This document shows, piece after piece, positions 2,813 through 39,076 of a stretch of 64,000 bases of DNA. Origin of the DNA: Lytechinus pictus (taxonomy: Eukaryota); NCBI RefSeq assembly GCF_037042905.1, contig NC_087250.1, positions 22,136,001-22,200,000 of the forward strand, given 5' to 3'. The notes under the pieces are model-generated. The model was not told the origin of the DNA. It did not search any database and saw nothing but the letters and a program-made list of their open reading frames with translations. Position numbers and translations under genes: made by a program. How positions within the stretch are numbered: position 1 is the first letter of the stretch; each line of letters opens with the position of its first letter.

Positions 2813-3777
2813 CTTGATTCAAATATTACACATTACCATTCAATTAATAGCTTTGATGTGAAAACAAATTGGAAAAAATGAATATTCCTACACCGCTCGG
2901 GAAACATAAAAATTTTGCTTTATAAATTCAGATTACCCATGGTATTTCAACATCACCAAACAAACTCTCTTTACGAATTAATGATCAATAATTGCACCAT
3001 CTCCCCACCTCTTCCTTCGCGCTCTCTCTCTCTCTCTCTCTCTCACTCTTAGATTAGTAAAAATTATTATTATCATCATTAAGGTCATTATTATTATTAT
3101 TTCTTATCATTATTATTGTTACTATTAGTATTTATTCATATTATTATTTATTATTACTATTACTGATTACTATTCATTAATATTAGTATTTACTATTATC
3201 ATTATTGTAGTTTTTGTTGCTGTTATTATTATTATTATTATCTTCATTATTATGATTACAACTGATATTATTATTGCTTTTGTTATTTAATATCAATACA
3301 TTCAGTGAAAAAAAATATATGTATTTCAATTTGCTTGAGTTGAAACTTGATGTAGTGTACTAGACATGCCTAGTGACTTGTGGGTTATTCATCATAATGA
3401 GACAACACACAAAATAAAAACAGAAATAAGTATATAATCGATTATGTAATTTTAGAAATTCTTATGGATAATGAAATACCTATGCACTAATTTCACAAGG
3501 TATTTTTAAAGCATCGTCTTCTTTGTATATATATTTTTTTTTTTCATAGAAATGTTACTTGTTACATAGAAATATCACCCAAATTAATATATTTTAGTAA
3601 AAACCATTAGACCAACAAATTTTAACTAGAATATAATTTGGAAAATAAAAAGTAAACTTGCATTTCGATGAAGATTGATAATTCTTGTGTTAAAAAATTG
3701 AAATAAAATTTTGGCGGACCAGAAACAAATGTTTATTTACATGGTCCAACGTTGTACTTTGACATTTAAATCTACTA

Positions 3778-6659
3778 CGGAGCCCCTAAGTTGACATGTC
3801 ATTATATTACTTTCGTAAGTCGTTCCCTCGACTTATTAACTCGTTACCACGACTTATAACTCGTTCCCTCGACTTACTAACTCGTTCCCTCGACTTACTA
3901 ACTCGTTCCCACGACTTACTAACTCGTTCCCTCGACTTGAATGCGCAGCAGACCGGCAGGAAGTTGGTTGGATATTCAGGTTCGATATTCAAACGCCTGT
4001 GAAGCTGGACCAATATTCGATATTCGATATTCAAAAATTAGGGGTTTTGAAAGCTAACTAGGGGGTTTAACAGGTGCAGCAAGTCTCGGGCAACCATAAA
4101 AACACTGGCTTGCCCAAATACGAGGACATTTAGGGGACAAACGTCAGTGAATAAAAGGGCATGACATTTTTTTTTTCGAGGGGCCCCCAGGGATTTCCCG
4201 ACGGCCTAGCCGGGGTAATGACGTATCCTAACTTGTAGAACTTTACTTGGGCAATCAGATAAACACTAGCATGACCCGGCGCATGCACATTTAGGGGGCA
4301 ACTCGGTAAAGCATCTCATGAGCAGATCTTATTCATCTATTATACTCAGTCCTAATTCCTCCACCACTAAAATAGTTCCGAAAGAGTGATACATGTATTT
4401 TTCTTTTATTCGCACAAAATATGTTCAGTGGTTGCCCATTCTTTGTTTCTAGAATCAGTCTAATCATTATACATACTCTTTTTTGTAATCAGCTTACAAC
4501 AAAAAATGAGAATGGGTTGGGTCGAATGAATATTTTCAGCCGTCTGTTGTATAGATCGTAATTTCTTGGAAAAAAAAGATGGGGGCGTATAACGATAGAA
4601 AACGTATTGTCAAAACATAAAATATGAGTATAAAGCTCCTATAATCTTCGAATGATTCTCAGGAGACTTTTTTTTTTGCATGTGTAGCCTTCAATTCAAT
4701 TAATCAACAACGAGTTATACCCCTACAAAATAAACGTTTCATAAACTAAAATGTCTCTTTTAGACGATATCGCGTGACTAATTTCAAAGCTATTGATTGA
4801 TTGATTGATTGATCGGCTAAATTTCCAAAGCGACTATAACATAATAAGAATTTAATTTCAAAATCATTTTTAAAGGCCAAAATTTTCTGGCTCGCTTCGC
4901 TCGCTGGCGACTTTTACAAATTTTTCCACATTTGCTATGTTGTGCTGCCTCAACATATTTCGTTTATTATCCGCAACTGCGTTGAACTTAATATAATATG
5001 CGGTGTATTTACCCGCAATTTGAAAAAAAAATGGCCATCTGCAATGTTTAAAAATATCACGAGGTTCCGGGGGCTCCGCCCCAGACCAGTGGTGGCACCA
5101 AAGGAGGAGGCCCCAGTGAGTTTCCCCCCTAAAAATTTTGGGGAAAAAATGTAAAGTGATTTCTCGAAAACTGTTTTTTGTTCTTTAAATTTTGAAAATG
5201 TTCTCATCCATTCACCGTAAACATTTAGCTCCCAACAATTTTGGTCACTAACATAAATCTTTGAGGTCATTATATAATATTCAAAATGTCGCTCGTGCTA
5301 CGCGCTCGCAGTTACTAATAATGGAGATAAGTAAATTATTTGTTCACATTGGGCTTAAAATCCAATGTTATTAGAGTTTTCATTATTCGTTTTAGCGAGA
5401 TACATATCCTACATATTCATAATTTTCATAAATGAAATATTTTCAGCGAATTAGATAGCCATTCAGTTCATGATTACAAAAAGTGCTTAGAACGTCCAGG
5501 TATCATCCCCGGATTTCAAAACTTTTCGCAATATAAATACCCTATATTATTATTATTATAGCACTGATCCCCCCAAAAAAGTTATACAACCGAGAACAAA
5601 AAAGAAATGATAAAAGGAAAGAAAGATGAAAGATATGATGTCATTTTTTGCATACCATTTTTTTTTCTCGCTCGCTCGAGACTTATTATTAAGCAAATTT
5701 TTGCTGCATGTGCCATGGTGTGCCCCCTCTTTTTGTTCTTATCACGCATTGAGCTTCGCCCTAATGCTCGGGGCACAATCATAAAACATCCTGTTCATAC
5801 AATGATATGACCCCTCCGTTCTCCCTTCTCTTTCTCTCCCGTCCCCCTCCTTTTCTTTCCTATCTCTCCCTTTCGCTTCTCTCTCTTCTATTTTGTATTC
5901 TCTCTTTCCTTGTTTTTTTTTACTCTACCCACTGGCGGCACCAAGAGATAGGGGAAAAGTCAGGATTTTCCTTTAATTTTGTTAATTTGAGCCCCCTAAA
6001 TGTTCATGCGCCGGGTCAAGCTAGTGTTTATCTCGTTGCCCGAGTCGAGTTCTACAAGTTAGGATACGTGGTTACCCCGGCTAGGCCGTCGGGATATCCC
6101 TGGGGGCCCCTCGGAAAAAAAAAAAAAAAAAAATGTCATGCCCTTTTATTCACTGACGTTTGTCCCCTAAATGTCCTCGTACTTGGGCAAGCCAGTGTTT
6201 TTATGGTTGTCCGAGACTTGCTGCACCTGTTTAACCCCCTAGTTAGCTTTCAAAACCCCTAATTTCTGAATATCGAATATCGAATATTGGTCCAGCTTCA
6301 CAGGCGTTTGAATATCAAACCTAAATATCCAACCAACTTCCTGCCGGTCTGCTGCGCATTCAAGTTGAGGAAACGAGTTAGTAAGTCGTGGGAACGAGTA
6401 ACAAACTTACAAGTCGAGGGAACGAGTTAGTAAGTCGTGGGAACGAGTTAGTAGGTCGTGGGAACGAGTTACAAACTTACAAGTCGAGGGAACGAGTTAG
6501 TAAATCGTGGGAACGAGTTATAAGTCGAGGGAACGAGTTATCAGTCGAGGGAACGAGTTATAAGTCGTGGTAACGAGTTAGTAAGTCGTGGTTACGAGTT
6601 AGTAAGTCGAGGGAACGACTTACGAAAAAAAATAATGACATGTCACCTTAGGGGCTCCG
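3778..6659. mobile_element. Non-autonomous long-TIR DNA transposon, copy 1
   Basis: Ends TA|CGGAGCCCCTAAG ... CTTAGGGGCTCCG|TA; ~500-650 bp inverted arms with tandem ~19-nt subrepeats AACTCGTTCCCTCGACTTA; no transposase ORF. Confidence 0.85.
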
Positions 6660-6809
6660 TAAGGCTCCGTACTTTGATGTGAAAACAAATGGAAGAAAAT
6701 GAGGAACATTGGTACTCCGTTTCAGGAAACCTAACAATTGCTTCAGATCACCCACATTGTTTCAACATCGCTTAAACAAACTCTGTTACGAATAATGATC
6801 CATATTTGC

Positions 6810-6850
<41 letters not shown>

Positions 6851-9800
6851 TCTCCCCCCTCTCTTAAAAGTAAAAAATCAATATTGTTATCATATTACTA
6901 TTATTATAAACATTATCATTAATATTATTATTATCATCATTATTATTAATACATACTTATTATCATTATTATCATCATTAATATCATTTTTATTATTATT
7001 TCTTATCATTATTATTGTTACTATTATTATATCTTTATATTATTATTCATTATTACTATTGCTTATTACTATTTATTATCATTATTTACTATTATCATCA
7101 TTATAGTTGTTGTGGCTGTTATTATTATCTTCATCATTATTATTACAACTGATATTATTGTTTTTTTTATAGCAATATTGCCCGAAATTGTATTTCAGTA
7201 AAGATCAATACTCCAAAATTATTTAAGTAGAATATAATTCAGAAACTAAATAAACCTATTGTATTTCGGTGTGTGTTGCTGTTGCTATTTTGGGTTTTAT
7301 TTTGAAAAAAAAAAAATTTGCGGGCCAGAAACAAAGTTTTACATGGTCCAATGTTGGACTCTTATATCCCCTTTCCTGGATTGTCAGTAGGATCCATGTA
7401 CTAAAGATAATAAAAATGAGACAGTACACAAAATAAAGACAGAAATAAGTATATAATCGATTATATACTCATCGACAAACCTTATGGATGCTAAAATACC
7501 TAAGCATTAATTTTACAAAGTAGTTTTAACGCATCATCTTTTTTTCTTTAAACATTTTTTTTAACGAAAATTTTATTTGCTTCAAAGAAATATAGCCATA
7601 TTAAATAGATTATTGTAAAAATTGATGGACCGACATTTTGTAACTAGGATATAACTTAGAAACTAAATAAGCGTATTGTATTTGGGTTTCAGCAAGTAAA
7701 TGACTTTTAAAGTCTGTAAACATAAAGTTTGGCGGACCAGAATTAAAGTTTTACATGATCCAATATTGTATTCTTATATCCTATCCCCTGGATTGCTACG
7801 AAGATCCATGATTTACCGATGACATCATCCTTGGTTCAACTGTTACACATTACCATTCAATTCATAGCTTTGATGTGAAAATAAATTGGAGAAAATAAAG
7901 AATATTCCTACACCGTTCGGGGAACCCTAAAAATGTTGCTTCATAAATTCAGATTACCCATGGTATTTCAACATCAGCAAACAAACTCTCTTTACGAATT
8001 AATGATCAATAATTGCACCCTCTCTCTCCCCCTCTTCCTTCGCGTGCTCTCTCTCTCTCTCTCACTCACACTTAGATTAGTTAAAAATTATTATTATCAT
8101 CAATATCATTATTATTATAATTTCTTATCATTATTATTGTTACTATTATTATCTATTCATATCATTTTTCATTATTACTATTACTGATTACTATTCATTA
8201 TTATTATTAATATTTACTATTATCATTATTGTAGTTGTTGCTGTTATTATTATTATTTTCATTACTATTATTACAACTGATATTAGTATTGTTTTGTTAC
8301 TTTATAGCAATACATTAAGTGAAAAAATATATGTATTTCAATTTGCTGGAGTAAAACTTTACGTAGTGTACTAGACATGCCTAGTGACCTGGGTTTTTTT
8401 ATCGTAATGAGACAGGTAAAAAAAATAAAGACAGAAATAAGTATATAATTTTAATTGATTGATTGGCCGATATGGCCTTTTATATGATAAAACAATATTT
8501 ACAAATATTATACAGAGGCAAAGGGATAAAAAAGCAAAATACAATTTTAGAGATAACAATTACAACAAATGAAAGCACAACATACATGTACCGGATGCAG
8601 GGGACCAGCGAAGGCCGAAGGCCTATCAAGGCTAGTCCCCGAACATAGCAATAAATAAAGTATAAACCAATACAAAAAAAGGGCAAAAAACAATCGATTA
8701 TATAAAAACCAACAGAACATATGGCAGCTGAATACCTAAACACCAATTTCACAAAGTGATTTCAAACAATCGTCTTCTTTGATTTTAATATCTTTTTTGA
8801 AACTTCTTTTTCAATAAAAATTTTACTTGTTCTAAAGAAATATCACCCGAATAAATACATTTCAGCAAAGATCAATTGACCCAAAAAAATTTAACTAGAA
8901 TATAATTTATAAACAAAATAAATATAATGTATTTCGGTACCAACAGAATTGAATTAGAAAACATTTATTAAACAATTTTGGCGGACCAGAAGTAATGTTT
9001 TACAAGGTCCAATATCTTACTCTTACATCTTATCCCCTGGATTACCTCGAAGATCTATGATGATGTAAAGATAACATCATTCTTGATTCAAATATTACAC
9101 ATTTAGCATTCAATTCATAGCTTTGATGTTAAAAGAAACTGGAGAAAATAGAGAATATTCCTACACCGTTCGGGGAAACCTAAATATTGCTTCATAAATT
9201 CAGGTTGTTCATGGTATTTCAACATCACCAAACAAACTCTCTTTACGAATTAATGATCAATAATTGCACCCTCTCTCCACCTCTTCCTTCGCGCGCGCTC
9301 TCTCTCCCCCCCCCCCCTCTCTCTCTCTGTCTCTCACTCTTAGGTTAGTTTAAAATTATTATCATCATTAATATCGTTATTATTATTCCTTATCATCATT
9401 ATTGTTTCTATTATTTATTTATTTATATTATTATTCATTATTTCTATTACTATTCATTATTATTAGTATTTATTATCATCATTGTAGTTTTTGTTGCTGT
9501 AAATATTATCATTATCTTCATAATCATTATTACAACTGATATTAGTATTGTTTTTGTTATTTCATAGCAATAAATTCAGTGAAAAAATATATATGCAGTT
9601 CAATTTGCTTGAGTTGAAACTTGATGTAGTGTACTAGACATGCCTAGTGACTTGTAGGTTATTTAACATGATGAGACAAGACACAAACTAAAGACAGAAA
9701 TAAGTATATAATCGATTAAGTATACACTAACAAACATTATGGATGCTAAAATACCTAAGCGCAAACTTCACAAAGTAATTTTAAAGCATCGTCTTCCTTT

Positions 9801-10462
9801 ACTTTAATATCTTTGAAATAAAATTAAATAAAATGTTATATGTTTCAAAGAAATATCGACCGAATAAACATATATTTTAGTAAAAATCAATACACCAAAA
9901 TATCTTAACTAGAATAGATTTTAAAAAGTAAATTAACTAATTGTATTTCGGTTTCTCATCGCTACTTTTGAATTTACTTTTTTTGTTGAAACAATTTTGG
10001 CGGACCAGAAATAATGTTTCATAAGGTCCAATTTTATATTCTTGAATTCTATCCCCTGGCTGGATTACCATGAAGATCCACTATTTAGAGATAACATCAA
10101 TTTTGTTCAAATACTACATATTAACAACCATAGCTTTGATGTGAAAACAAATTGTAGATAATAAAGAATATCCCTACACCGCTCGGGAAAACCTAAAAAT
10201 GTTGCTTCAGAAATTCAGATTACCAATGGTATTCCAACATCACCAAACCCTCTTTACGAATTAATGACCAATAATTGCAACGGGGAGCTCCCCCTCTTCC
10301 TTCGCATGCGCGCTCTCTCTCTCTCTCACTCTTAGATTAGTTCAAAACTGTTATTATCATTATTAATATCATTATTATTATTATTATTTATTTTCATTAT
10401 TATTGTTACTATTATTTATTTATCTATATTATTATTCATTATCACTATTACTTAATACTATA

Positions 10463-10629
10463 GGCGTTGTGGCGTGCGCCTGTAATCCAAGCTTTGTGCG
10501 GAAGTAACAAAGTGATGCAGAGCTTCGAGCCCTGGTCACGTCTTTCGGATGGTGACGTTAAAGGTCCGTCCCAGACGTAAATAATCATATCTAATTGACA
10601 CACGTCTGACAAAACTTAAATACACACAC
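10463..10629 (+). mobile_element. SINE with 7SL-like head, copy 1
   Basis: GGCGTTGTGGCGTGCGCCTGTAATCCAAGCT head, degenerate B box, (CA)n tail; near-identical to three other copies. Confidence 0.85.
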
Positions 10630-12073
10630 TATTCATTATTATTTACTATTATCATTATTACAGATCTTGCTGTTATTATTATCTTCATTACCATTATTAC
10701 AACTGATATTAGCATGGTTATTGCTATTTTGTAGCAATACATTCAGTGAGAAAATATATGTAATTCAATTTGCTTAAGTTGAAACGTCATGTAGTGTACT
10801 AGACATGCCTAGTGACTTGTAAGTTATTTACTATAATGAGACAACACAAAAAATAAAAACAGAAATAAGTATATAATCGATTATGTATACAATAACAAAC
10901 ATTATGGATGCTAAAACACCTAAGCACAAATTCCACAAAGTAATTTTAAAGCATCGTCTTCCTTTACCTTAATATCTTTTTAAAAAATTAATAAAAATGT
11001 CGTATGTTTTAAAGAAATATCGACCGAATAAACATTTATTTTAGAAAAATCAATTCACCAAAATATTTAACTAGAATAAATTTTAGAAATTAAATAAACT
11101 GATTGAATGTCGCGTTATCACTATGATACATTTTTACCTTTTTTAAAAACAATTTTAGCGGACCAGAAATAATGTTTCACATGGTCCAACATTATATTCT
11201 TACATCCTACCCCTGGATAGCCATGAAGATCCACTATGAAGAGATAACATCATTCTTGCTTCAAATACTACATATAACCATGCCTAGTGAATCATGAGAT
11301 ATTTATCATAAGGAGACCAAAAAAATAATAAAGACAGAAATTATATAATCGATCATATAAAACCTAACAGACCAAGAGGACACTAAAATACCTAAGCACC
11401 AATTTTACAAAGTAATTTTAAAGCATCGTCTTCCATTTTAAAATATTTTTTAAATATTTTTTAATAGCAATTATACTTGTTATGTTTTCAGAAATGTCAC
11501 CCAAATAAATATATTTTAGTAAAAATCTTTAGACCAAATTTTTTTAACTAGAATATATCTTAGAAAGTAAAATTATTATTGTATTTTTGTATTTAACGTT
11601 GTTATCAATTTATAATATATATCTTATTACAATTTTGGCGGATCAGAAACAATGTTTCACTTGGTCCATTACTTCACTCCTACAGCTTATCCCCTTGATT
11701 GCCACGAAGATCCAAGTTCTAGAGATAACATCATTCTTGGTTCAAATATTACACATTGCCATTTAACTCATTGCTCTGATGTAAAAGCAAATTGGAGAAA
11801 ATAAAGAGTATTCCGTCACCTTTCGGGGAAACTCAAAAATTGCTTCAGAAGTTCAGATAATCCATGGTATTTCAACAACACCAAACAAACTCTCTTTACG
11901 AATTAATGATCAATAATTCTCTTCCTTCGCGCTGTCTCTCTCACGCTTAGATTAGTTGAAATTATTACCAATATTATCATCATTAATATCATTATTATTT
12001 CTTATCATTATTATTGTTAGTATTATCATTTATTTATGATATTTATTATAACAATTACTTATTATTACAACTA

Positions 12074-12248
12074 GGCGTTGTGGCGTGCGCCTGTAATCCA
12101 AGCTATGTGGGGAAGTTACGAAGTGATGCAGAGGTTCGAGCCCTGGTCACGTCTTCCGTATGGTGACATTAAAGGTCGGTCCCAGACGTAAATAATCATA
12201 TCTGATTGATACACGTCTGACAAAACACATAATACACACACACACACA
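12074..12248 (+). mobile_element. SINE with 7SL-like head, copy 2
   Basis: Same sequence with B box GGTTCGAGCCC; same position in the unit as copy 1, so probably co-duplicated with the unit. Confidence 0.85.
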
Positions 12249-12924
12249 AACTATTCATTTTATTGTTTACTATTATCATTACTATAGATGTTACTGTTAT
12301 AATTATTATCTTCATTACTATTATTATAACTTGTATTAGTATTGTATTTATTATTTTCTAGCAATACATTCAGTGAGAAAATATATGTATTCCAATTTGC
12401 TTGAGTTGAAACTTCGTGTAGTGTACTAGACATGCCTAGTGACTTGTGGGTTATTTATCATAATGAGGACAACAACAAAATAAAGACAGAAATAAATATA
12501 TAATCGATTATATAAACAGCAACGGACGCTATGGATGCTAAATACCTAGGCACCAATTTCACAAAGTAATTTTAGAGCATCGTCTTCTTCTATTTTAATA
12601 TTTGTTTTAAATATTTTTTTTTCGATTGGAAAGGTTACTTGTTTCAAAGAAGAACTGCCCGAATAAATATATCTTAGTAAAGATCAATAGACAAAAAATT
12701 ATAACTAGAATATAATTTAAAAGCTTAAAAGTATAGTATTTTGGTACACTTATTGCTTAATTTATGCTCTAACTTATTTATAAACACAATTTTGGCGGAC
12801 CAGAGATGTTATACATGGTCCAATATTTATATTCTTACATCTCATCCCCTAGCTTTTAACTAGAATATAAATTTGAAATAAAATAAACCTATCGTATTTC
12901 GGTACATAGGCGCCTACATTAGTT

Positions 12925-13095
12925 GCTGGGCGTTGTGGCGTGCGCCTGTAATCCAAGCTATGTGGGGAAGTTACAAATTGATGCAGAGGTTCGAGCCCTG
13001 GTCACGTCTTTCGGATGGTGACGTTAAAGGTCGGTCCCAGACGTAAATAATCATTTCTGATTGATACACGTCTGACAAAAAACTCAAATACACAC
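12925..13095 (+). mobile_element. SINE with 7SL-like head, copy 3 (full 5' end), inside the variable window of unit 12
   Basis: GCTGGGCGTTGTGGCGTGCGCCTGTAATCC...GGTTCGAGCCC...TACACAC lies between GTATTTC and AGTTTTGGCGGACCAG. Confidence 0.85.
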
Positions 13096-14486
13096 GCTTT
13101 TACTTTCAAAACAGTTTTGGCGGACCAGAATTACTGTTTTACATGGTCCATTGTTTTACTCTTAATTCTATCCCCTGGATTGCCATGAACAACCATGATT
13201 TAGAAACATCATCCTTACTTCATATATTACATATTACCGTTCAATTCATTGCTTTGATGTGAAAACAAATTGTAGAAAATAAAGAATATTCCTACACCTA
13301 TCGGGGAAACCAAAATTTTGCTTCATAAATTCAGGTTGTTCATGGTATTTCAACATCACCAAACAAACTCTCTTTACGAATTAATGATCAATAATTGCAC
13401 ACTCTCTCCACCTCTTCATTCGCGCGCGCTCTCTCTCTCTCTCTCTCTCCCCCCTCTCTCTCTGTCTCTCACTCTTAGGTTAGTTTAAAATTATTATTAT
13501 CATCATTAATATCGTTATTATTATTTCTTATCATCATTATTGTTTCTATTATTTATTTATTTATATTATTTATTTATTTATACTATTTATTTATTTATAT
13601 TATTATTCATTATTACTATTACTATTCATTATTATTAGTATTTATTATTATCATTGTTGTAGTTTTTGTTGCTGTAAATATTATTATCTTCTTAATCATT
13701 ATTACAACTGATGTCATTATTGTTGTTGTTATTTCATAGCAATATATTCAGTGAAAAAATATATATGTATTTCAATTTGCTTGAGTTGAAACGTTATATA
13801 GTGTACTAGACATGCCTAGTGACTTGTAGGTTATTTACCATAATGAGACAACACAAAATAAAGACAGAAATAAGTATATAATCGATTATGTATACACTAA
13901 CAAACATTATGGATGCTAAAATACCTAAGCACAAATATCACAAAGTAACTTTAAAGCATTGTTTTCCTTTACCTTAATATCTTTAAAAAGATTGAATGAA
14001 AATGTCGTATGTTTCAAAGAAATATTGACCGAATGAACAGTTATTTAAGTAAAGAACAATACACCAAAATCTTTTAACTAGAATAGATTTTAGAAACTAA
14101 ATAAACTCATTGTATTTCGTTTTTATATCGCTATGATACTTTTTCACTTTTTTAAAAACAATTTTGGCGGGCCAGAAATAATATTTCACATGGTCCAATA
14201 TTATATTCTTACATTCTATCCCCTGGATAGCCATGCAAATCCACTATTTAGAGATAACATCAATTTTGCTACAAATACCACATATTAGCATTTAGTTCAT
14301 ACAGTTGTGCTCAGAAGTATTCATACCCCTTGGAAAATCAGTTTTTTGCATTAAAAAAAAAATAAGAGTAGAAATGGAGTCAGTTACAAATCAGTCAAAT
14401 ACATTTAGGTATCATGTACAAAAGCATGCCATTTTTATTTTCACCTCATTTGCATATCGAAAAGCTCCATCTTCATTTCATCAGAC

Positions 14487-17359
14487 AGGTCTCCTTTACA
14501 AAGATACCATTGATGTTCATGAGGTAAAGGCTGGTGAAACGAAGTCTTTGGTTCATGCCAACTCAGAATTGTTAATCTCTACAGACCACCATACTCCGAG
14601 AATCACCGCATCCCAATTTCTACGTTCTTATCTGAATTCAGCGAGTTTATTCAACCACACCTGATGTCAAACATTCCTATAATTTTGACTGGGGACTATA
14701 ACATTCATGTTGATGTTATTGATAATTATGACTCAAGATTGTTTCGAGATTTGTTAGAATCTCTTGGATGTGTTTAACATGTTAAAGTAGCTACTCGTGT
14801 ATCAGGTCATACCATAGATTTGATCATTACTCGACAGTCTGATGACATTGTTTTAGAGCCACCTTGGTCGGACTCCTTGGTGTCTGATCACATGTCCATT
14901 TTCTGTACCCTTAATGTTTGTAGAACTCCTTTGCCAGTGAATAAGGTGTCATATAGGAAGCTATCCAATGTTAGATTAGATGCACTTAATAATGACCTTG
15001 CCTCATCTGAACTTTGTTTAAATCCACCTGATTCTCTTGATGACCTAACCTCATCATATGATTTTACTTTAATACGGTCTATCCTTGATAAACATGCCCC
15101 TATGTGCTTAAAGAGTGTTAATAGTCGTCCTAGAGTTCCATGGTTTACCGATGGTATAAGGATGGGAAAGAAGAAGAGAAGAAAGGCTGAAAGGAAATGA
15201 AGAAAATCAAAATCTGTCTCTGACCTTAATGCTTTTAAGACAGCTAGAAATAGGACATTATACGTAATGAATAAGGCTCGTTCTAAGTATTACACTGACT
15301 GTATCACTGATAATAGCTCAAACCAAAAGAAACTCTTTGGCATAACAAAGTCTTTACTAAACATGAAAAAGAGTGATCTTGTCATACCTCCTAGTGTTGA
15401 CAACTATGATTTTGTTACTGGACTAGGAAACTTTTTTGAACAAAAAGTAGTAAAAATTCACTGTGAAATTGAATCATTGTTACATGAAGAGCAGGTCGGT
15501 GTTGATGGTTCGCAGGGATGCTTTTCTGCTTCTAACCAGCACGTACTCTCGAGCTTCAAGTTACTATCACTAAGTGATGTTAGGAAAATTGTTATGAACC
15601 TCAGTAAAAAATCATGTTCCCTCGATCCAATGCCAACAAATGAAGATTGGTTGTTGAATGTCTAGATACCTTACTACCTGTGCTTACAAAAATCATAAAT
15701 CTGTCATTACATGATGCCAAGTGTTATTCGGGTTGGAAGCTAGCGTTAGTTAGGCCTGTGCCAAAGAAACCTAATTCAGAAGTAAACTTCAATAACTTCA
15801 GGCCAATAAGTAACCTTCAATATGTGTCAAGTTGGTTGAAGGGGCAGTTACTGCCCAAATTCAGGAACACCTCGATCGTAACAACCTCTTCCCCTTAACA
15901 CAGTCAGCTTACAGGAAGTTTCACAGTACAGAAACAGCCCTACTAAAAGTTAAGAAGGATTTACTAATGGCTATGAACCAACAGAAAGTTACCTTTTTAG
16001 TACTCTTAGACCTTAGTGCTGCGTTCGACACTATTGACCATAGTATACTTGCTGAAATATAAGAAATTGATTTTGGGATAACAGACTCTGCTTTGTCTTG
16101 GTTGCAGTCTTACCTTTCCGATAGGCAGCAACAAATATCAATTGGTGACATTACCTCAAAGAAATTTGACGTTAGATGGGGTATTCCCCAAGGGTCCAGG
16201 CTCGGACCTCTCCTTTTTTCCCTCTATTCTAGTAGACTTTTTCGGTTATCAAAGCACACTCTGAAAAAATATCTTGTCACTGTTATGCAGATGACACTCA
16301 ATTATACATTTCCTTCAGCCCAGTCAGGGAACAAGAACAGTCCTGTGTTTTTGGCTCTTGAACACTGCCTACAGGAACTTCGTAGATGAATGTTGAGCAG
16401 TAAGTTGAAACTCAATGATAGCAAAACTGAGTTTCTTATCATTGAAACACCTAGACAAGTGTCTAAACTAAATATAGATTGCATAACAGTTGGAAATACT
16501 GTAGTCAAGCAGACCAGGGTTGCTAAAACCGTTGGTGTCTGGTTTGACTCGCAGCTAAACATGGAAACCCACATATCCAAAACATGCAAAACTGCCTTCT
16601 ATCATCTCTACAACTTACGTCATATCCGGAAATATCTAAACAGCACATCTATCAATACACTGGTCCATGCATTTGTAACAAGCAAATTGGATTATTGTTA
16701 CAGACTACTTTTTGGCTTACCAGATTCTCAGATAAACAAATTACAGCGTGTTCAAAATGCATGTGCCAGACTCATTTGTAATTCCCCCAAATTTTCCCAT
16801 GTAAGGCCCCTACTCCAAGATCTACATTGGCTTCCAGTACGTCAGAGAATCAAATTCAAAATAATGCTCCTAACATATAAAATACTACATCACATGGCCC
16901 CCACCTATCTCAGTGAACTCCTTAAATTAAAACCACCCACCCAGTCTTACAGGCTTCGTAGTTCCCATGACACAATGCTCCTCAGTCTCCCACCATGTAA
17001 AACAAAGATTACACTAGGTGACCGTGCCTTTATCAGTGCTGCACCCAAACTCTGGAATCGTCTCCCTTCCTCAATAAGAAATGCATCCTCTGTCAACTTA
17101 TTTAAAACTAAACTGAAATCCCACCTCTTTCAAGAGAGTGTTTGATAAGTCACTTTTTTGTTATGTATTTTGTAGAAATAATTAATCTTTACTTATTTTT
17201 CTTCGATTAATTTAGCGAGCTTAAATTTACTTCTAAATTTTTTGCGTATCCTGTTAATACTTGTTTTTCTGCATGCTTATCTGCTATGTATTGTAATGCG
17301 CAGTTGAGTATATCCAAGTAGAAATTGTGCAATATAAATTTACAATTATTATTAGTATT
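14487..17359 (+). mobile_element. 5'-truncated L2/CR1-group LINE with disrupted ORF2 (endonuclease end + reverse transcriptase)
   Basis: GDYNIHVD, GHTIDLIIT and SDH endonuclease motifs; QSAYRKFHSTETAL, LLDLSAAFDTIDH, GIPQGS, YADD (16284); LHWLPVRQRI; (TTA)n-like tail; 7-bp TSD ATCAGAC at 14480-14486 and 17360-17366; several frameshifts and stops. Confidence 0.95.
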
Positions 17360-17818
17360 ATCAGACCAAAGAACAGACCTCCAAAACGTTTCATCCTTTC
17401 CCAGATGTCTTCTGGCAAAGTCCAAACGTGATCATGTGTGGTTGGGTTTTAGGAGAGGAGTCTTCCGTGGCCGTCGTCCATTCAATCCTGCCTTATTCAA
17501 GGTCCTCTGGATGGTTTGCCTCGAGACCTTGGTCCCTTGGCCATTGAGATCTTTCAGCATCTCCTTTGTGGTGATTCTGGGGTTGACAGCAGCAGCTCGA
17601 ACTAAACATCTCGCTTGCCTTGCAGAGACTTTGGGCTTCCGTCCAGGTCTTTTAAGGTTCTCCACTTTGTTAAAAGTCTTGAGCTTCCTGATGATGCTCT
17701 GGACAGTAGCCACATGAACCTCAAAACGCTTGGATATTGCCTTGTAGCCCAAACCATCTTTGTGAGCATTCACTATTTGTGATCTCAGATCGTCACTAAG
17801 TTCCTTTCGCTTGACCAT
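17360..17818 (-). pseudogene. Tc1 transposase N-terminal part
   Basis: MVKRKELSDDLRSQIV...GYKAISKRF...RPGRKPK...GRRPRKTPLL, then a stop, then FARRHL...FWRSVLWSD. It continues as (SD)EMKMELF at ~14459-14485 on the far side of the LINE; the rest of the DDE domain is deleted. Confidence 0.9.
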
Positions 17819-20349
17819 GATGAAGTTTAAGCCGATTCCGATGAATTGACAAATATCTTGCCACTGATTCTCAATTTATAGAACCACTAAAGTTTCTGGA
17901 ATTCAAAGACTTTGATTTTCTCAACAAAATTTCATTTCAAAAAGGCAAAACGCCCCCCTCCCCCAATCTTTAATTGAATTGATTTTTAATCAATTTCATC
18001 AACATGGCAACTAACATCTGGACAAACCTCAGAAAATTGAAGATTTCTGAGATCTAAGGAACTTCCTCTTTCTGGATACCATGCAACATGGCTTAAATTC
18101 TTTTGTATTCATGTCTGGCATTATAGGGTCCAGCTTGAAACCATATGGGGGTAGTAAAATATTTGAACTATGAAATATATGGTGTCTTATAATTGAGAAA
18201 GACAGGGGTATGAATACTTTTGAACATTAGAAAATTCAGAAAAGTCATCTTCTCTATTATTATGCAAATGAGATGAAAATAAAATCAGCATGCTTTTGTA
18301 GATAATGTCTATTAGTATATAACTACTATGCAAGTTATCCAAGTTCTGCTTTCATTTTTATGAAAAGTGCAAAAAACACATATTTTCCTAGGGGTATGAA
18401 TACTTCTGACCACAACTGTAGCTTTGATGTGAAAACAAGTTGAAGAAAATAAAGAATATCCCTACACCGTTCGGGGAAACCTAAAAATGTTGCTTCAGAA
18501 ATTCAGATTACTAATGGTATTTCAACATCACCAAACAAACTCTATTTACGAATTAATTATCAATAATTGCACCCTCTCTCCCCCCTCTTCCTTCGCGCGC
18601 GCGCTCTCTCTCTCTCTCACTCTTAGATTAGTTAAAAAGTATTATTATTATCAATAATATCAATATTATTATCATTTCTTATCATTACTATTGTTACTTA
18701 TTTTTATTTATTTATATTATTTTTTATTATAACTATTACTGATTGCTATTCATAATTATAAGTTTTTACTATTATCATTATTGTAGTTTTAGTGGCTATT
18801 ATTATTATTATAATTATCTTCATTATTATTTTTACAACTGATTTTATTATTGTTTTTGTTATTGTATAGCAATACATTCAGTGAGGAAATATATGTATTT
18901 CATTATGCTTGAGTTTATAAAGAAAGAAATGAGTATATAATCGATCATAAAATCACCAATAGACCTTATGGATGCTAAAATACCTAAGCACCAATTTCAC
19001 TAAGTAGTTTTAAAGCATCGTCTTTTCTATTTAAATGTCTCTTTTTTACTATAATTTTTAATGGAACTTTTACTTGTTCCAAAGAAATACGGTCCGAATA
19101 AATATATTTTAGTAAAGATAAATACACCAAAAAAAAATAACTAGAATAGAATTTAGAAATTGAATAAACCAATTGTATTTCAGAACGTAGCGTTGGCTAT
19201 ATATTAGTGTTTGTTCTTGAAAAGAAAAATTGACGGACCAAGAATGTTTTACATGATCCAATATTTTACTCTTAAATTCTATCCTCTGGATTGCCACAAA
19301 GATTGATTATTTAGTGATAACATCATTCTTGATTCAAATACTACATATTACCATTCAATTTATTGCTTTCATGTGAAAACAAATTGGAGAAAATAAAGAA
19401 TATCCCTACACCGTTCGGGGAAACCTGAAAATGTTGCTCCATAAATTCAGATTACCCATGGTATTTCAACATCACCAAACGAACTTTCTTTACGAATTAA
19501 TGATCAATAATTGCACCCTCTCTCCCCCTCTTCCTTCGCGCGATCCCTCTCTCTCTCACTCTTAGATTAATTAAAAATTATTATTGTCATCATTTATATC
19601 ATTATTATTATTTCTTATCATTATTATTGTTACTATTAGTATTTATTCATATTATTATTTATTATTACTATTACTGATTACTATTCATTAATATTAGTAT
19701 TTACTATTATCATTATTGTAGTTTTTGTTGCTTTTATTACTATTATTATTATCTTCATTATTATGATTACAACTGATATTATCATTGCTTTTGTTATTTT
19801 ATAGCAATACATTCAGTGAAAAAAAAATATATGTATTTCAATTTGCTTGAGTTGAAACTTTATGTAGTGTACTAGACATGCCTAGTCACTTGTGGGTTAT
19901 TCATCATAATGAGACAACACACAAAATAAAGACAGAAATAAGTATATAATCGATTATGTAATTTTCAAAACTCTTATGGATAATAAAATACCTATGCACT
20001 AATTTCACCAAGTATTTTTAAAGCATCGTCTTTTTTCTATATATATTTTTTTTTTTAATAGAAATGTTACTTGTTCCATAGAAATATCACCCCAATTAAT
20101 ATATTTTAGTAAAAACCATTAGACCAACAAATTTTAACTAGAATATAATTTGAAAAAAAAATAATCATATAGTATTTCGATGGTAATAATGTTAGTTTTC
20201 TATATTTAAATTAGACTTATAATTTTGGCGGACCAGAAAGATTTACTTCCATGGTCCAATGTTGTACTCTTACATTCTATCATTGTGCGGAGCCCGTATG
20301 GTGACATGTCATTATTTCAAATTACAAGTCGTTCCCTCGACTTACTTGC

Positions 20350-21880
20350 CACATTTCGCAATAACGATTGGTGTATTTTTAGACTTATCTAAAGCATTCG
20401 ATTGTATAGACCATAATATTTTAATTGATAAGCTATCATCATACGGGTTTAGAGGGACAGTATTGAAGTGGTTAATCAGTTACTTAAGAAATCGAAAACA
20501 ATGTGTATGCATCAACAAAATTCATTCAGACTTTCAGGACATTAGAGTAGGGGTACCCCAGGGGTCTAACCTAGGCCCTCTTCTTTTTATATTGTACATC
20601 AATGACCTGCAACATGTAAGTAATATTTTAACTACTACCTTATTTGCAGACGATACAAGTTTATTTTTATCTGGTAAGGATCCCATTCAATTAAATAATA
20701 TTTTAAATTCTGAAATGGAAAAAGTTCACATGTGGTTCCAAGCCAACAGACTACAAATTAACACTAAGAAGACATCTTTTATGATTTTTAAGCCTAAAAA
20801 TAAGAAAATTGAAGAAAACTCAATAAAATTATATATAAATGATTTTGAAATTCAGAAAGTGCAATATACGAAATTCCTAGGTGTCACAATTGACGATAGC
20901 ATGAGTTGGAAACAACATGTAAATAATATTTCTATGAAGATTTCTCAAACCATTGGTGTACTTAATAGAATCAAAGGTGACTTACCATTGCATATTCGTG
21001 TTCAATTATACAATACAATGATACTCACGCATCTCAGCTATTGCAATATCGTATGGGGGGACTGTGCAAATTATTTAAAGCTACAATTATTTCGCTTACA
21101 AAAACGGGCAATAAGAATAATAACAAATTCCCCATATTTAGCTCACTCTCATCAATTATTCCGTAAATTAAAGATTCTAAAAATTTATGATATACATACC
21201 CTTCACACTGCAATTTTTATGTTTTCATACTACAAGAATCAGTTGCCTGACACATTTAACAGTTATTTTAAAACAAATCGCAGTGTAAACAAATATAATA
21301 CGAGAAATTCTGATAATTTATACATTCCTTTTTACCGCTTTTCTTTCTCAAGAACCGTCATAAGTTATAGTGGACCACTCATATGGAACAGTTTGCCCCC
21401 TGAAATAAAAGAAAGTCCTTCGCTAAATTCATTTAAAGTAAGATTTAAGTCTTACCTTCTAAATATGTATACTTCACCATGTTCTCAGTGAATAAGCTTG
21501 CTTGCTTTTATGTGTATGTTTTTTAAACATATTTTTTTGTAATGTAGTTGTTATTTTTTTTCTTCAAAATTTTCATTAGTTTGTTGATTTCGTTTATTTT
21601 GAAATGTGTGTTTCTTGCAATCTAATCAATTGATTGCAGGATGGTCTTTTTTCGGGAATGAATGTTAATCAGGGAGTAGCCTAGATAGGTCTATTTGGCT
21701 TTTGCTATCCCCCCACATCGCATTCATTACCCTATGTATTTTGTTATTTTTGTTAATTTGTCATTTTACTATATTCATTACTCCTTTACTCCTTTACTAT
21801 GGAATCATTTTGATTGATCTCGATATATTGTATCTTGTATGTTTTTTACAGATGTGAAATAAATGAATTTGAATTTGAAT
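20350..21880 (+). mobile_element. 5'-truncated CR1/L2-group LINE (open RT C-terminal half, 3' UTR, tail)
   Basis: IGVFLDLSKAFDCIDH, GVPQGSNLGPLLF, FADDT, KFLGV; open to the stop at 21491; AATAAA plus (TGAATT)n tail at ~21858-21880. Confidence 0.93.
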
Positions 21881-22495
21881 CCCCACGGACGCTAATATGA
21901 GGGTCCCCTAACACAAAAGTTGACGCTTAATCATTCACTTGATTTTTAAGATTGATTCTACATTATAGTCAATGCAATCAAACGTAGAAAACTGCTCTAC
22001 AATCAATGCTAAGATTTGTGTTTGGTTACAGGGGGGTTACAGGCCCCACAGATCTGCTTTTCGTGTGCAAAATTCTTTCCCGCGACACCCGCGCGCCATA
22101 CATGCATGTATTACGACTGATGGCTGGAGATATTCGAAATGCAGGACCTAAAATAGAATATGACATGGATAAGAAAGTGGTTTTTCAAACAAGTCGAGTA
22201 CATATTGAGCGAGGAAAAACTTACTAAATTAAGGCTTAGATATAGATCATTACAGTCCATCGAATCGATATTGCATTTAATGTGGATTATTGGTGGATGA
22301 CTGGCAATTGATTCCATGGGTCAGATCACCTCTCCAGCCGAACCCATTTCGCATATGTACACAGCGTATGCAATACGTTTGAAAATGCGGGTTTCTTTTG
22401 TTCACTCCTTCTACACAAACGATACGCCTCTAGCACACGATGTAAAGGGTATTATGTTTTACTTTCCTCAGAAATGGGGGGTTAGATTCAAATTT

Positions 22496-22795
22496 CGGGG
22501 GGACCACTTCCATTGATGAGTGGATATCAGGCACGACCATGGGGTTTCGAAAAGTACCCTGAACAAGGGAAGCAAGTCTTTTCCAGATTATGAAAATGCA
22601 TTTTTTAACAATTATTTGGCTTGTGAAACCCTACAAGTATTGGAAGTATGTCCCTTTTTTCAGTATTTTAATCATCGTTTTTGACACCTTTATAACGTTA
22701 CATAGGCCTATACGTAACGTACTTACCTGACTCTTTCCCTTTTTACGCGTTGTTGCGCCTGGTATCCACTCTTCAATGAAAGTGGGCCCCCTGGG
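22496..22795. mobile_element. MITE
   Basis: ~40-bp imperfect TIR GGGGGGACCACTTCCATTGATGAGTGGATATCAGGC / GCCTGGTATCCACTCTTCAATGAAAGTGGGCCCCC. Confidence 0.7.
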
Positions 22796-25700
22796 CGGCC
22801 TCTCGAGCTCTGGGAGGAACCAAATGTGGATTTAGAAAGTCGTCCTAAATCGGATATATCGCTGTTACCATAGTAGCAACCAGAATTTTGCACACGAAAC
22901 GCAAATTGAATGTTTCCGTTCAAGATGCGAAACGAAAAAAAAATCTCATGTCACACAATTTGCATTGCAGGACAGAGTTTTAAGACCATGACGACGGGCC
23001 CAAAAGTCTCTTCCAAATTCAACTAACGTCGTAAATAAGCGTTCGCGTTCTTCCAACGAAAGGTCTGGACTAACTCGTTACCACGACTTATAGCTCGTTC
23101 CCTCGACTTACTAACTCGTTCCCACGACTTACTAACTCGTTCCCTTGACTTGAATGCGCAGCAGCCCGGCAGGAAGTTGGTTGGATATTCAGGTTCGATA
23201 TTCAAACGCCTGTGAAGCTGGACCAATATTCGATATTCGATATTAAAAAAATAGGGGTTTTGAAAGCTAACTAGGGGGTTTAACAGGTGCAGCAAGTATC
23301 GGGCAACCATAAAAACACTGGCTTGCCCAAATACGAGGACATTTAGGGGACAAACGTCAGTGAATAAAAGGGCATGACATTTTTATTTTGTGATTTTTTT
23401 TCGAGGGGTCCCCAGGGATATCCCGACGGCCTAGCCGGGGTAATAACGTATCCTAACTTGTAGAACTTTACTTGGGCAATCAGATAAACACTCGCATGAC
23501 CCGGCGCATGCACATTTAGGGGGCAACTCGGTAAAGCATATCATGAGCAGATCTTATTCATCTATTATACTCAGTCCTAATTCCTCCACCACTAAAATAG
23601 TTCCGAAAGAGTGATACATGTATTTTTCTTTCATTCGCACAAAATATGTTCAGTGGTTGCCCATTCTTTGTTTCTAGAATCAGTCTAATCATTATACATA
23701 CTCTTTTTTGTAATCAGCTTACAAAAGAAAATTAGAATGGGTTGGGTTGAATGAATATCTTCAGCCGTCTGTTGTATAGATCGTAATTTCTTGGAAAAAA
23801 GATGGGGGCGTATAACGATAGAAAACGTATTGTCAAAACATACAATTTGAGTATAAAGCTCCTATAATCTTCGAATGATTCTTAGGAGACATTTTCTTTT
23901 GCATGTGTAGCCTTCAATTCAATTAATCAACAAGGAGTTATACCCCTACAAAATAAACGTTTCATGAACTAAAATGTCTCTTTTAGACGATATCGCGTGA
24001 CTAATTTCAAAGCTATTGATTGATTGATTGATTGATCGGCTAAATTTCCAAAGCGACTATAACATAATAAGAATTTAATTTCAAAATCATTTTTAAAGGC
24101 CAAAATTTTCTGGCTCGCTTCGCTCGCTGGCGACTTTTACAAATTTTTCCACATTTGCTATGTTGTGCTGCCTCAACATATTTCGTTTATTATCCGCAAC
24201 TGCGTTGAACTTAATATAATATGTGGTGTATTCACCCGCAATTTGATTTTAAAAAATGGCCATCTGCAATGTTTAAAAACATCACGTGGTTCCGGGGGCT
24301 CCGCCCCAGACCAGTGGCGGCACCAAAGGAGGAGGCCCCAGTGAGTTCCCCCCCCTGAAATTTTGGGGAAAAAAAATGTAAAGTAATTTCTCGAAAAATA
24401 TTTTTTGTTCTTTAAATTTTGAAAATTTCCTCATCCATTCACCGTTAGCATTAAGCTCCCAACAATTTTGGTCACTAACAAATCTTTGAGGTCATTATAT
24501 AATATTCAAAATGTCGCTCGCGCTACGTGCTCGCAGTTACTAATAATGGAGATAAGTAAATTATTTGTTCACATGGGGCTTAATAATCCAATGTTATTAG
24601 AGTTTTCATTATTCGTTTTAGCGAGATACATATCCTGCGTATTCATAATTTTCATTAATGAAATATTTTCAGCGAATTAGATAGCAATTCAGTTCATGAT
24701 TACAAAAAGTGCTTAGAACGTCCAGGTATCATCCCCGGATATCAAAACTTTTCGGCTCGCGCTTCGCGCTCGCATTATTCATTTGGTGAGATATCATCTT
24801 CATGGACCAATTAATGCAAACAGCTAGTCCTTGACAGGTCCCTTTTCAAGTCAGTATAGGGACTATACATTTGAAATAAAATTAGCTCGCGCTTCTCACT
24901 CTGTTTTAAAAAAATTGTGTGTCACCCCCCCCCCCCCGGCCCCAAAATGTTATTTTGCCTCCTCATAGGTTAAAAACTATGGTGCCGTCTTTGCCACGGA
25001 CCCGATCCGCATAGCACTGATCCCCCCAAAAAAATTATACAACCGAGAACAAATTAAAAAGAAATGATAAAAGGAAAGAAAGATGAAAGATATGATGTCA
25101 TTTTTTGCATACCATTTTTTTTCTCGCTCGCTCGAGACTTATTATTAAGCAAATTTTTGCTGCATGCGCCATGGTGTGCCCCTCTTTTTGTTCTTATCAC
25201 GCATTGAGCTTCGCCCTAATGCTCGGGGCACAATCATAAAACATCCTGTTCATACAATGATATGACCCCTCCGTACTCCCTTCTCTTTCTCTCCCGTTCC
25301 CACTCCTTTTCTTTCCTATCTCTCCATTTCGCTTCTCTCTCTTCTATTTTGTATTCTCTCTTTCCTTTTTTTGTTTTACTATACCCACTGGCGGCACCAA
25401 GGGATGGGGGAAAAGTCAGGACCGTGGTTCCCCATGCTTGAAATAGCCCTTTATTCCTTTAATTTTGTTAATTTGAGCCCCCTAAATGTTCATGCGCCGG
25501 GTCAAGCTAGTGTTTATCTGGTTGCCCGAGTCGAGTTCTACAAGTTAGGATACGTGGTTACCCCGGCTAGGCCGTCGGGATATCCCTGGGGGCCCCTCGA
25601 AAAAAAATCAAAAAGTAAAAATGTCATGTCCTTTTATTCACTGACGTTTGTCCCCTAAATGTCCTCGTACTTGGGCAAGCCAGTGTTTTTATGGTTGTCC

Positions 25701-27160
25701 GAGACTTGCAGCTGCACCTGTTTATCCCCCTAGTTAGCTTTCAAAACCCCTAATTTTTTAATATCGAATATCGAATGTTGGTCCAGCTTCACAGGCGTTT
25801 GAATATCGAACCTGAATATCCAACCAACTTCCTGCTGGTCTGCTGCGCATTCAAGTCGAGGGAACGAGTTAGTAAGTCGTGGGAACGAGTTACAAACTTA
25901 CAAGTCGAGGGAACGAGTTAGTAAATCGTGGGAACGAGTTATAAGTCGTGGGAACGAGTTAGTAAGTCGAGGGAACGAGTTAATAAGTCGAGGGAACGAG
26001 TTAATAAGTCGAGGGAACGAGTTAATAAGTCGAGGGAACGAGTTATAAGTCGAGGGAACGAGTTATAAGTCGTGGTAATGAGTTAGTAAGTCGAGGGAAC
26101 GACTTACGAAAACAAAAATGACATGTCACCTTAAAGGCTCTGTACTTTGATGTGAAAATGAGGAACATTGGTACTCCGTTCCAGGAAATGTGAAAATTGC
26201 TTTAGATCACCCACATTGTTTCAACATCGCTTAAACAAACTCTGTTACGAATAATGATCCATATTTGCCCCCCCCCCTCTCTCTCTCTCTCTCACTCTCT
26301 CTTCCTCTCCCCCTGTCTTAAAAGTAAAAAATCAATATTGTTATCATATTACTATTATTATAAACATTATTATAATATTATTATTATTATTATCATTATT
26401 ATTAATATCATACTTATTATCATTATTATCATCATTAATATCATTCTTATTATTATTTCTTATCATTATTCGTGTTACTATTATTATAAATTTATATTAT
26501 TATTCATTATTACTATTACTTATTACTATTCATTATCATTAGTATTTACTATTATCATTATTATAGTTGTTGTTGCTGTTATTATTATTATCTTCATTAT
26601 TATGATTATAACTGATATTATTATTGTTTTTGTTATTTTATAGCAATATATCCAGTGAAAAAAATATATGTATTTCAATTTGCTTGAGTTGAAACTTTAT
26701 GTAGTGTACAATGCATGCCTAGTGACCTGGGGTTATTTACCACAATGAGACAGGTAACAAAATAAAGACAGAAGTACATAATCGATTATGTAATTTTCGA
26801 CCCTCTTATGGATAATGATATACCGAGGCACTAATTTCACAAAGTAGTTTTGAAGCATCGTTTCCTTTTACTTAATATATTTTATCATGAAAATATGACT
26901 TGTTTCAAAGAAATATTGCCCGATTAAATATATTTTAGTAAAGATCAATAGACAAAAATTTTTAACTAGAATATAATTTAGAAACTAAATAAAACTATCG
27001 CATTTCGATAAACAAAGAGTTGCGGAATTTGGTTATATGTTGAAAATAATTTTGGCGGACCAGAAATAAAGTTGTACATGGTCTAATATTGTACACTTAC
27101 ATTCTAACCCCTAAATTGGCACGAAGATCCATGGTTTAGAGATAACATCATTCTTGATTC

Positions 27161-28254: not shown

Positions 28255-28420
28255 GTGTATTTGAGTTTTGTCAGACGTGTATCAATCAGATATGATTATT
28301 TACGTCTGGGACCGACCTTTAACGTCACCATCCGAAAGACGTGACCAGGGCTCGAACCTCTGCATCAATTTGTAACTTCCCCGCATAGCTTGGATTACAG
28401 GCGCACGCCACAACGCCCAG
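28255..28420 (-). mobile_element. SINE with 7SL-like head, copy 4
   Basis: Reverse complement of 12926-13095. Confidence 0.85.
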
Positions 28421-30008: not shown

Positions 30009-30475
30009 CCCTTTACCATCATTATTCAAATGCATTGCTCTGAATTTGCTTGAGATAAAACGTCAGTTCCTCGAGTATAGACGCACCTAGTAACCTATTT
30101 TATTGTTACTCATTATGACACACGATAGAAAACAATGACAACAAATAAATATGTAATCGTTTATGTATTTTCGATGAGCTATCATATGGAGACACGAATT
30201 CATAAAAAGTTAAGGAAGGCTTTTTCCCCCCTAATACTTACATATTTAATGAAAATATTTCATTTAATACACATTGCCTTATATAAAAGAGTAAAATAAA
30301 GTTTGATAGACCGACATGATTCAACTAGAATATATTTTACAAATTAAAGATATCAGTACATTTATGCCTTCTAAATATCAAAATACAATATTTGTCTAAG
30401 AAATAATTTCGACAGGACAGAAACAGAGGCTTTTTTTCCTATTGACCTTTTCTTGTTACAATAATCTGGTTACCT

Positions 30476-30853: not shown

Positions 30854-31327
30854 TGATGTGAAAACAAAGTGAAGGAAAGGAAGAATATTACTATACCGTT
30901 CAAGGAAACCTGAAAATAGTTCAGATCATATCACCCACGGTGTTTCAACATCACCAAAACAAATTATGTTTACGAATAATGATCCATATTTGCACCCTTT
31001 ACCCCCCCCCCTTTCTCTTTCTCTATCTCTCTCTCTCTCCCCCTCTCTCTCTCTCTTCCACCTCAGTATTATTATCATTATTGTTGCTGTTGTTATTATT
31101 ATTGTTGTTGTTGTAATCATCACTATTATATTACTATTATTATTATTATTATCACTATTACCATTGTTATCATTTGTTAAGTGTGTTGCTTTCCATCATA
31201 TGGTATGCTTTGTGGTATTTCAATACGGTTGTCAGATTTTATACTAAATTCCCTCTTATTCAGGTTTAAGAATGTATATAATGTAAAAATATCTTCCTCG
31301 CTTGTACTTGAAATTCTGTTATTACAG

Positions 31328-39044: not shown

Positions 39045-39076
39045 TTAAGTATCATTTCTTTTTTCTATTTGATCAG

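Follow-up and report, generated by a model that had tools for sequence, protein, structure and literature searches.

Substitution excess around the predicted start of small-RNA-like units in a sea urchin tandem array: a possible case of transcription-associated hypermutation

Two recently duplicated members of a tandem array in the sea urchin Lytechinus pictus are nearly identical upstream and strongly diverged in a short patch downstream. The question raised by this locus is what makes so small a piece of young DNA change so fast. The array lies in a stretch of 64,000 nucleotides (RefSeq assembly GCF_037042905.1, contig NC_087250.1, positions 22,136,001 to 22,200,000 of the forward strand), here called the 64-kb window, from which all of the sequence evidence is taken. 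The patch of the two duplicates, units 4 and 15, has changed about 7 times faster than the rest of the duplicate. As the cause, transcription-associated mutagenesis at a predicted mini-gene of the small nuclear RNA (snRNA) type is favored, with a probability of roughly 0.55. Positions within units are counted from an inferred start (+1; position 3667 for unit 4, position 20179 for unit 15), set by eye from the sequence only at the pyrimidine–purine step that closes the conserved upstream sequence. The array and its duplicated parts are placed as follows.

Positions 1 to 30431, + strand: array of 17 units of about 1 kb each, with fragments and one degenerate unit (30039-30431).
Positions 294, 1301, 2383, 3667, 7268, 7685, 8936, 9950, 11112, 11588, 12743, 12901, 14119, 19182, 20179, 27007 and 28807: inferred +1 of the 17 units.
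Positions 2813 to 7178, + strand: duplicate copy 1, with unit 4, a transposon and the start of unit 5 (by alignment).
Positions 19328 to 26649, + strand: duplicate copy 2, with unit 15, the transposon with later insertions and the start of unit 16 (by alignment).
Positions 3777 to 6660, unstranded: inverted-repeat transposon of copy 1, which replaces about 82 bp of the unit; its left end (3777-3836) is inside the patch.
Positions 20287 to 26136, unstranded: inverted-repeat transposon of copy 2, interrupted at about 20347-23068; left end 20287-20346.

The initial annotation of this DNA had described a segmental duplication with the same transposon at the same site, and the alignment of the two copies, with identical junctions, agrees with it. 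The duplicate is 4.4 kb long and the identity is limited to that stretch. The segments 3361-3640 and 19873-20152, judged by eye to be about 95% identical, match at 267 of 280 sites, and the transposon bodies, called near-identical, differ at 49/1585 and 24/801 sites. The deletion of the unit at the transposon had been given as about 95 bp; measured in five intact units it is instead 81-86 bp. Copy 2 carries two extra insertions, at about 20347-23068 (containing a reverse-transcriptase fragment of a long interspersed element, LINE) and at about 24755-25010.

The age of the pair can be limited by the transposon. Within one copy, the left and right inverted repeats differ at 13-19 of about 320 sites (4-6%), so that the insertion and the later duplication can date back at most about 6% of divergence, barring homogenization of the repeats. 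Such homogenization is argued against by the fact that several of the left–right differences are common to both copies.

The fast-changing patch and its variable window, the latter being the predicted 5′ part of an RNA, are located at:

Positions 3632 to 3831, + strand: fast patch of unit 4 (-35 to +165), with 50/195 sites differing from unit 15.
Positions 20144 to 20346, + strand: fast patch of unit 15, from the alignment with unit 4.
Positions 3667 to 3706, + strand: variable window of unit 4.
Positions 20179 to 20220, + strand: variable window of unit 15.

Divergence between units 4 and 15 is 50/195 inside the patch against 150/3734 elsewhere in the duplicate, and the next-worst 200-bp stretch of the alignment shows 19/191. 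In detail, the spacer at -35 to -1 has 9/35 differences, the variable window 18/40, the Sm-type site with the first stem arm 0/19, the loop 3/12, the second stem arm 1/9, and the linker 9/26. The corrected rate ratios are 7.6 for the patch, 7.1 for the patch without the variable window and at least 16 for the latter itself. The onset of divergence, first placed about 15 nucleotides before the variable window, is dense from -17 as described, but begins near -26. Confinement to the variable window does not hold, since the excess continues into the loop, the linker and the transposon end, making the fast zone five times wider. The match of about 60% between the two variable windows was reproduced (18 of 40-41 sites differ) and is at chance level: identity is 0.625, with a mean of 0.55 and a 95th percentile of 0.65 for shuffled sequences. 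Its rank is 55th among the 120 pairs of units (z 0.9), so that the two are as distant as unrelated units are.

The left end of the transposon, lying inside the patch, is by its position in the alignment a neutral reporter, and the inverted repeats are a clock. Its first 60 bp (+111 to +170) differ between the copies at 11-12 of 59 sites, and 12/59 stands against 7/315 in the inner left repeat (p 2e-6). The respective right ends differ at 4/58 sites and the inner right repeats at 11/325, while comparison of the left end of copy 2 with the two right ends gives 10/59 and 12/58. A patch at 25% compared with an age limit of about 6% speaks against an old remnant, and against selection on the 5′ part (the payload) alone. 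The latter is also insufficient because the excess is found in the spacer, the loop, the linker and the 60-bp transposon terminus. Thus, between the two causes offered by the initial annotation, hypermutation around a start site is better supported than payload selection by the excess in non-payload sequence, although the start site is itself a prediction. Diversifying selection may act in addition, the variable window being the peak.

The mutation spectrum of the non-window patch is enriched in changes between A and T (10/33 compared with 7/75 in unit DNA; p 0.009). The difference between transitions and transversions in the patch is not significant (p 0.12) and no C-focused deaminase pattern is evident; on these grounds no enzyme is named.

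Phylogenetic trees were built from the upstream sequence (15 units) and from the patch without the variable window (101 columns). Unit 5 was omitted from the trees, and unit 12, which has an insertion in its variable window, from the alignments. In the upstream tree, units 4 and 15 are sisters with branches of 0.028 and 0.019. In the patch-flank tree they are still sisters (86/93 support), with branches of 0.19 and 0.10. Their states at -27 and -22 are common to both and occur in none of the 14 other aligned units. The closest unit to either patch within the 64-kb window is 22-30% different. A recombination breakpoint joining the 3′ half of an unrelated unit at the variable window, set beforehand as the refuting case, was not seen, since both 3′ halves carry the same transposon junction.

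The layout of the units suggests snRNA-type mini-genes, the predicted parts of which in the hottest pair are:

Positions 3623 to 3638, + strand: conserved upstream block of unit 4 (-44 to -29), a candidate promoter element.
Positions 20135 to 20150, + strand: conserved upstream block of unit 15.
Positions 3707 to 3714, + strand: Sm-type site of unit 4, identical in unit 15.
Positions 3716 to 3747, + strand: predicted hairpin of unit 4 with a 6-bp stem, after the Sm-type site.
Positions 20221 to 20257, + strand: Sm-type site (20221-20228) and predicted hairpin (20230-20257) of unit 15.

Conserved upstream blocks are found at -83 to -66 and -44 to -29, with a core 40-43 nucleotides before +1 in all 16 units measured. 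The variable part that follows is 33-45 nucleotides long. The strict Sm consensus RAU3-6GR is matched in 10 of the 17 units, including 4 and 15, and the other 7 have variants. In the pair 4/15, the Sm-type site and stems changed at 1/27 sites (p 0.004 for a block picked post hoc). The 6-bp stem is paired in 90% of cells in 13 units, which is no better than in shuffled sequences; the mean z is -1.0, similar on both strands, and an automatic consensus fold returned no convincing structure. A second predicted hairpin is seen in the intact units at +111 to +131 (7786-7815 and equivalents), with 85% of cells paired, and is the part lost in units 4 and 15. Its loop may resemble the U1A/U2B″-binding loops of U1 and U2.

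Several known classes of RNA gene were tried and rejected. Spliced-leader (SL) RNA genes do not fit, for conservation is lowest in the 5′ part and any given GT position recurs in at most 3 of the 16 units. In the case of tandem microRNA clusters, none of the 16 units reached z < -2 for -40 to +50 or +1 to +135 on either strand. Both boxes of C/D small nucleolar RNAs (snoRNAs) occur in only 1 of 16 units. A CRISPR-like or spacer-capture array was rejected on the grounds that the variable windows form descent families. Rfam covariance models (U1, U2, U4, U5, U7, SL, SmY, HSUR, snoRNA, microRNA) gave no match at the gathering score in the 64 kb; at E values up to 10 there were only weak unrelated matches and the head of a short interspersed element (SINE) resembling the signal recognition particle (SRP) RNA. 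A metagenome scan gave two matches, neither with the unit layout, which were judged by eye to be due to chance. An echinoderm array of such units was not described in the literature searched, in which subscription journals and older papers were thinly covered.

U7 snRNA and the herpesvirus HSURs are similar in having a single-stranded 5′ part, an Sm-type site and a 3′ hairpin, and the U7 genes of sea urchins are clustered as well (PMC5054213, PMC13158664, PMC2582628). The array differs from U7 and the spliceosomal RNAs by the lack of an Rfam match and by a site of the spliceosomal type rather than the U7 variant. It differs from U7 and the HSURs in a 5′ part that is different in every unit and in having no vertebrate 3′ box.

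A doubtful alternative for the identity of the RNA, which would leave the mutational mechanism as it is, is that the units are mini-genes of the PIWI-interacting RNA (piRNA) type, each giving a short capped precursor that ends at the AT-rich stretch. A study of nematode 21U piRNAs (PMC6436959) describes individual units with an upstream motif at a fixed distance, a YRNT start, variability directly after it, a fall in GC past about +20 and, in Pristionchus, an intronic location, all of which recall the array. YRNT is found at the inferred start in 12/16 units, T at +3 is conserved and variability begins at +4, although the count is partly circular because the units are related and +1 was set by eye. 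GC content, a proxy for the nematode high-then-low melting signature, drops in all 16 units, from 0.36-0.39 at +1 to +20 to 0.15-0.20 at +21 to +40, and does so also when counted from +4. The nematode loci, as presented there, lack shared downstream sequence and number thousands, whereas the array consists of tens of paralogues in tandem, in which an Sm-type site and a hairpin are conserved, and a piRNA origin leaves the unchanged site and stem of the hottest pair unexplained. The RNA, if made, is more likely of the Sm class. The units are not assigned to any named snRNA or piRNA family.

Under the favored explanation, each unit would carry its own promoter (the blocks near -83 to -66 and -44 to -29). 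Transcription would start at the pyrimidine–purine step and give a short RNA with a free 5′ part of 40 nucleotides, an Sm-type site and one or two hairpins. Through its frequent initiation in germ cells, transcription would subject the stretch between -35 and about +165 to damage or to error-prone repair, mutation being highest at +4 to +23. Selection would purge changes in the Sm site and the stem. The 5′ part would drift until saturated, and duplicated units would thereby soon encode different 5′ sequences. An unequal heat among units would be expected if only some of them are active at once.

There are precedents for such a process in several reports. De novo mutation in expressed human snRNA genes is about 50-fold above background and is not raised in pseudogenes (PMC13484765). 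The human RNU genes have 32-fold more de novo mutations, and SNAPC4 sites 6-fold (10.1101/2022.08.20.504670). Active transfer RNA (tRNA) genes show 7-10-fold rates in their flanks, strongest 5′ of the gene (10.1101/229906), and R-loops are one proposed cause of this mutagenesis (PMC12165836). The excess in the pair 4/15, 7-fold over a patch that opens 35 bp ahead of the start and at least 16-fold at its peak, is within the range of these precedents. The human RNU genes and the tRNA genes share with the array a short, sharply bounded substitution excess around a small-RNA start that reaches upstream of +1, constrained parts that are held while free parts diverge, and only some copies affected. 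They differ in having a conserved RNA body, to which mutation is a load. In the array, about half of the predicted RNA is free and saturated, and the process would generate paralogue variety.

The other units were compared with the majority consensus of 16 units. Differences from it number 604/4837 in the far flanks, 59/346 in the spacer, 33/170 in the loop, 69/366 in the linker and 38/463 in the Sm-type site and stems, the last standing against 102/536 for loop and linker together. The least conserved block across the units is +7 to +24. In-patch divergence differs among units (p 0.03), whereas far divergence does not (p 0.25), and units 4 and 15 are first and second of the 16 for the ratio of in-patch to background divergence. 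Units 5 and 16 were considered as a second test pair and dropped, as unit 5 has a deletion and looks chimeric; they are about 12% apart upstream, with 7/53, 4/35, 17/41, 4/19 and 23/79 differences zone by zone.

The initial annotation had also proposed families of related payloads. When the variable windows were scored with the shared first and last 3 nucleotides trimmed, the pairs 9/13 (z 6.4), 2/16 (4.2), 3/17 (3.6) and 3/6 (2.4) held, whereas 8/9, 8/13 and 6/17 were significant only untrimmed (trimmed z 1.3-1.9). The four pairs that held are related by descent, which argues against captured spacers. Dense point substitution, put forward in place of capture, finds support in the flanks and in the pairs 9/13 and 2/16, while the variable windows of 4/15 are too saturated to tell. 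A search for an origin elsewhere left 15 of the 16 variable windows without a better-than-shuffle match inside the 64-kb window.

A considerable part of the evidence weighs against transcription-associated hypermutation. The transcription of the units is deduced from their layout with +1 set by eye, and both steps, from layout to transcription and from transcription to mutation, are ones that we infer. The changes in the patch are clustered: when merged into events they number 21/195 against 148/3734, a 2.7-fold excess. Counted in this way, only the loop is significant alone outside the variable window (p 0.013; the others 0.09-0.28), and the transposon end alone gives p 0.09. The left and right transposon ends differ at only p 0.057. 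The pair 9/13 has little excess (flanks 5/55, background 0.105). Elements inserted in the predicted patches of units 12 and 17 have no excess change; the SINE in the variable window of unit 12 has 3 private changes compared with 1-8 in the other copies, and in unit 17 no gradient is seen along an inverted-repeat element at +135. Patch divergence is not correlated with how intact the motifs are (rho -0.19, p 0.48). Compensatory base pairs were found in neither hairpin, and blocks far from the RNA are conserved as well as the Sm block. The vertebrate 3′ box is found in 0/16 units at one mismatch and 1/16 at two; the echinoderm box may differ from the vertebrate consensus. Finally, the stem branch of 4/15 is lengthened only about 1.3-fold in the patch, which makes the acceleration recent and coincident with the transposon. 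Such a recent acceleration fits episodic activity of the units and also an effect of the transposon.

That effect could be break repair, a rather unlikely explanation in which an error-prone polymerase would have filled in cuts made by the transposase at the left terminus. It would mutate about 140 bp of flank and the 60-bp terminus in each copy and would leave the general variability of the variable window to a separate cause. The insertion is carried by precisely the two hottest units, the acceleration is younger than their stem branch and the changes are clustered, while at the right end one copy has a duplication of 10 bp and the other has lost 14 bp of flank. On the contrary, the right ends differ so little (the 4/58 given above), and the peak is about 70-110 bp from the end, in the variable window, with an unchanged block between. 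Furthermore, mean pairwise divergence of the variable windows is 0.61 compared with 0.17-0.24 in the far flanks, units without the transposon included.

Diversifying selection on the 5′ payload as the main driver at ordinary mutation rates, for instance in a guide chasing changing targets, is judged improbable. All comparisons peak in the variable window, with a sharp rise at +4, and the flanks of most other units are only about 1.5 times the background (0.17-0.19 against 0.125), as selection would have it. Such selection cannot raise the divergence of the spacer, the linker and the transposon end. With a background of 4%, 1-2 mutations are expected per 40-nucleotide window against at least 18 found, which is hard to reach by fixation alone, and for 15/16 variable windows the 64-kb window contains no target better than chance.

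A patchwork made by recombination, either a short conversion tract from another unit or an old unconverted island between homogenized flanks, is equally improbable. Units 4 and 15 are as far apart in the patch as unrelated pairs are on average (0.28-0.30 in the flanks, about 0.6 in the variable window), the two variable windows are unrelated by score, and the right edge of the patch coincides with the 2.7-kb insertion in copy 2. In addition, the support of the flank tree is moderate for its 101 columns, with long-branch attraction possible, and the donor search covered the 64-kb window only. Within it there is no close donor (the nearest being the 22-30% above), and the unique shared states at -27 and -22 speak for common descent of the patches. 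A transposon-free donor cannot alter the transposon end, an old island cannot exceed the 4-6% age of the element, and at least three separate tracts would be required.

That copies 1 and 2 are alleles assembled in tandem, with the patch as a polymorphism peak, is very improbable: the 4% background is about the allelic divergence of sea urchins, which are highly heterozygous, but the identity is confined to 4.4 kb, the flanking units are mismatched (units 3 and 14 fall on opposite sides of a 100/99 split and units 5 and 16 are about 12% apart upstream), and the peak would still require explanation.

The genomic setting of the array is given by a neighboring gene:

Positions 31312 to 44883, + strand: 3′ exons of an SLC6 (SNF-family) transporter gene, with Pfam PF00209 in 4 of the 5 pieces scanned.

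The first exon detected begins at profile position 325, and a rough filter found no earlier SLC6 exons in 1-31300. From the profile position, the array probably sits in a long intron of the SLC6 gene, of more than 31 kb, on the same strand.

Other repeats are scattered in the 64-kb window. A SINE of about 165 bp with an SRP/7SL-like head has four copies (10463-10633, 12071-12239, 12928-13095 and 28255-28420), one of which is inserted inside the variable window of unit 12. The segment 28183-28470 is a 93-97% copy of the 3′ part of unit 5 without the upstream block and variable window. After unit 13, a Tc1/mariner-type element (14302-18420), in which helix-turn-helix pieces of the transposase were found, has an apparent broken LINE (by eye) nested inside it. 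A LINE-type element on the - strand (49081-53466) has an 809-amino-acid reverse-transcriptase frame and an endonuclease piece. Short tandem repeats seen by eye include a unit of about 18 bp (32600-32900), three copies of about 480 bp (34800-35830) and a degenerate unit of about 120 bp (46300-47320).

The mutational process proposed here is already known, and the RNA family on which it apparently acts has no earlier description; a role of this process in diversifying paralogous small-RNA genes was not described in the literature searched. Hypermutation of snRNA and tRNA genes has so far been described as a burden on conserved genes. The pair 4/15 offers a dated natural experiment, with the transposon end as neutral reporter and the inverted repeats as clock, and suggests that a gene family with a free 5′ half can gain diversity in this way. 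The patch is then the sole, and indirect, sign of germ-line activity of the units. A more speculative and rather doubtful extension is that small guide-RNA mini-genes, each transcribed on its own, occur in arrays in sea urchins, belonging to the Sm class or resembling piRNAs by convergence with nematodes. Their repertoire would be made by mutagenic snRNA-type transcription: a unit is duplicated and transcribed, and neutral DNA need diverge by only a few percent before the 40-nucleotide guide has been replaced, with the protein-binding scaffold preserved. Should the RNAs exist, a group of animals that serves as a standard developmental model would have a small-RNA class not described so far, in which the origin of variable guide repertoires could be tested.

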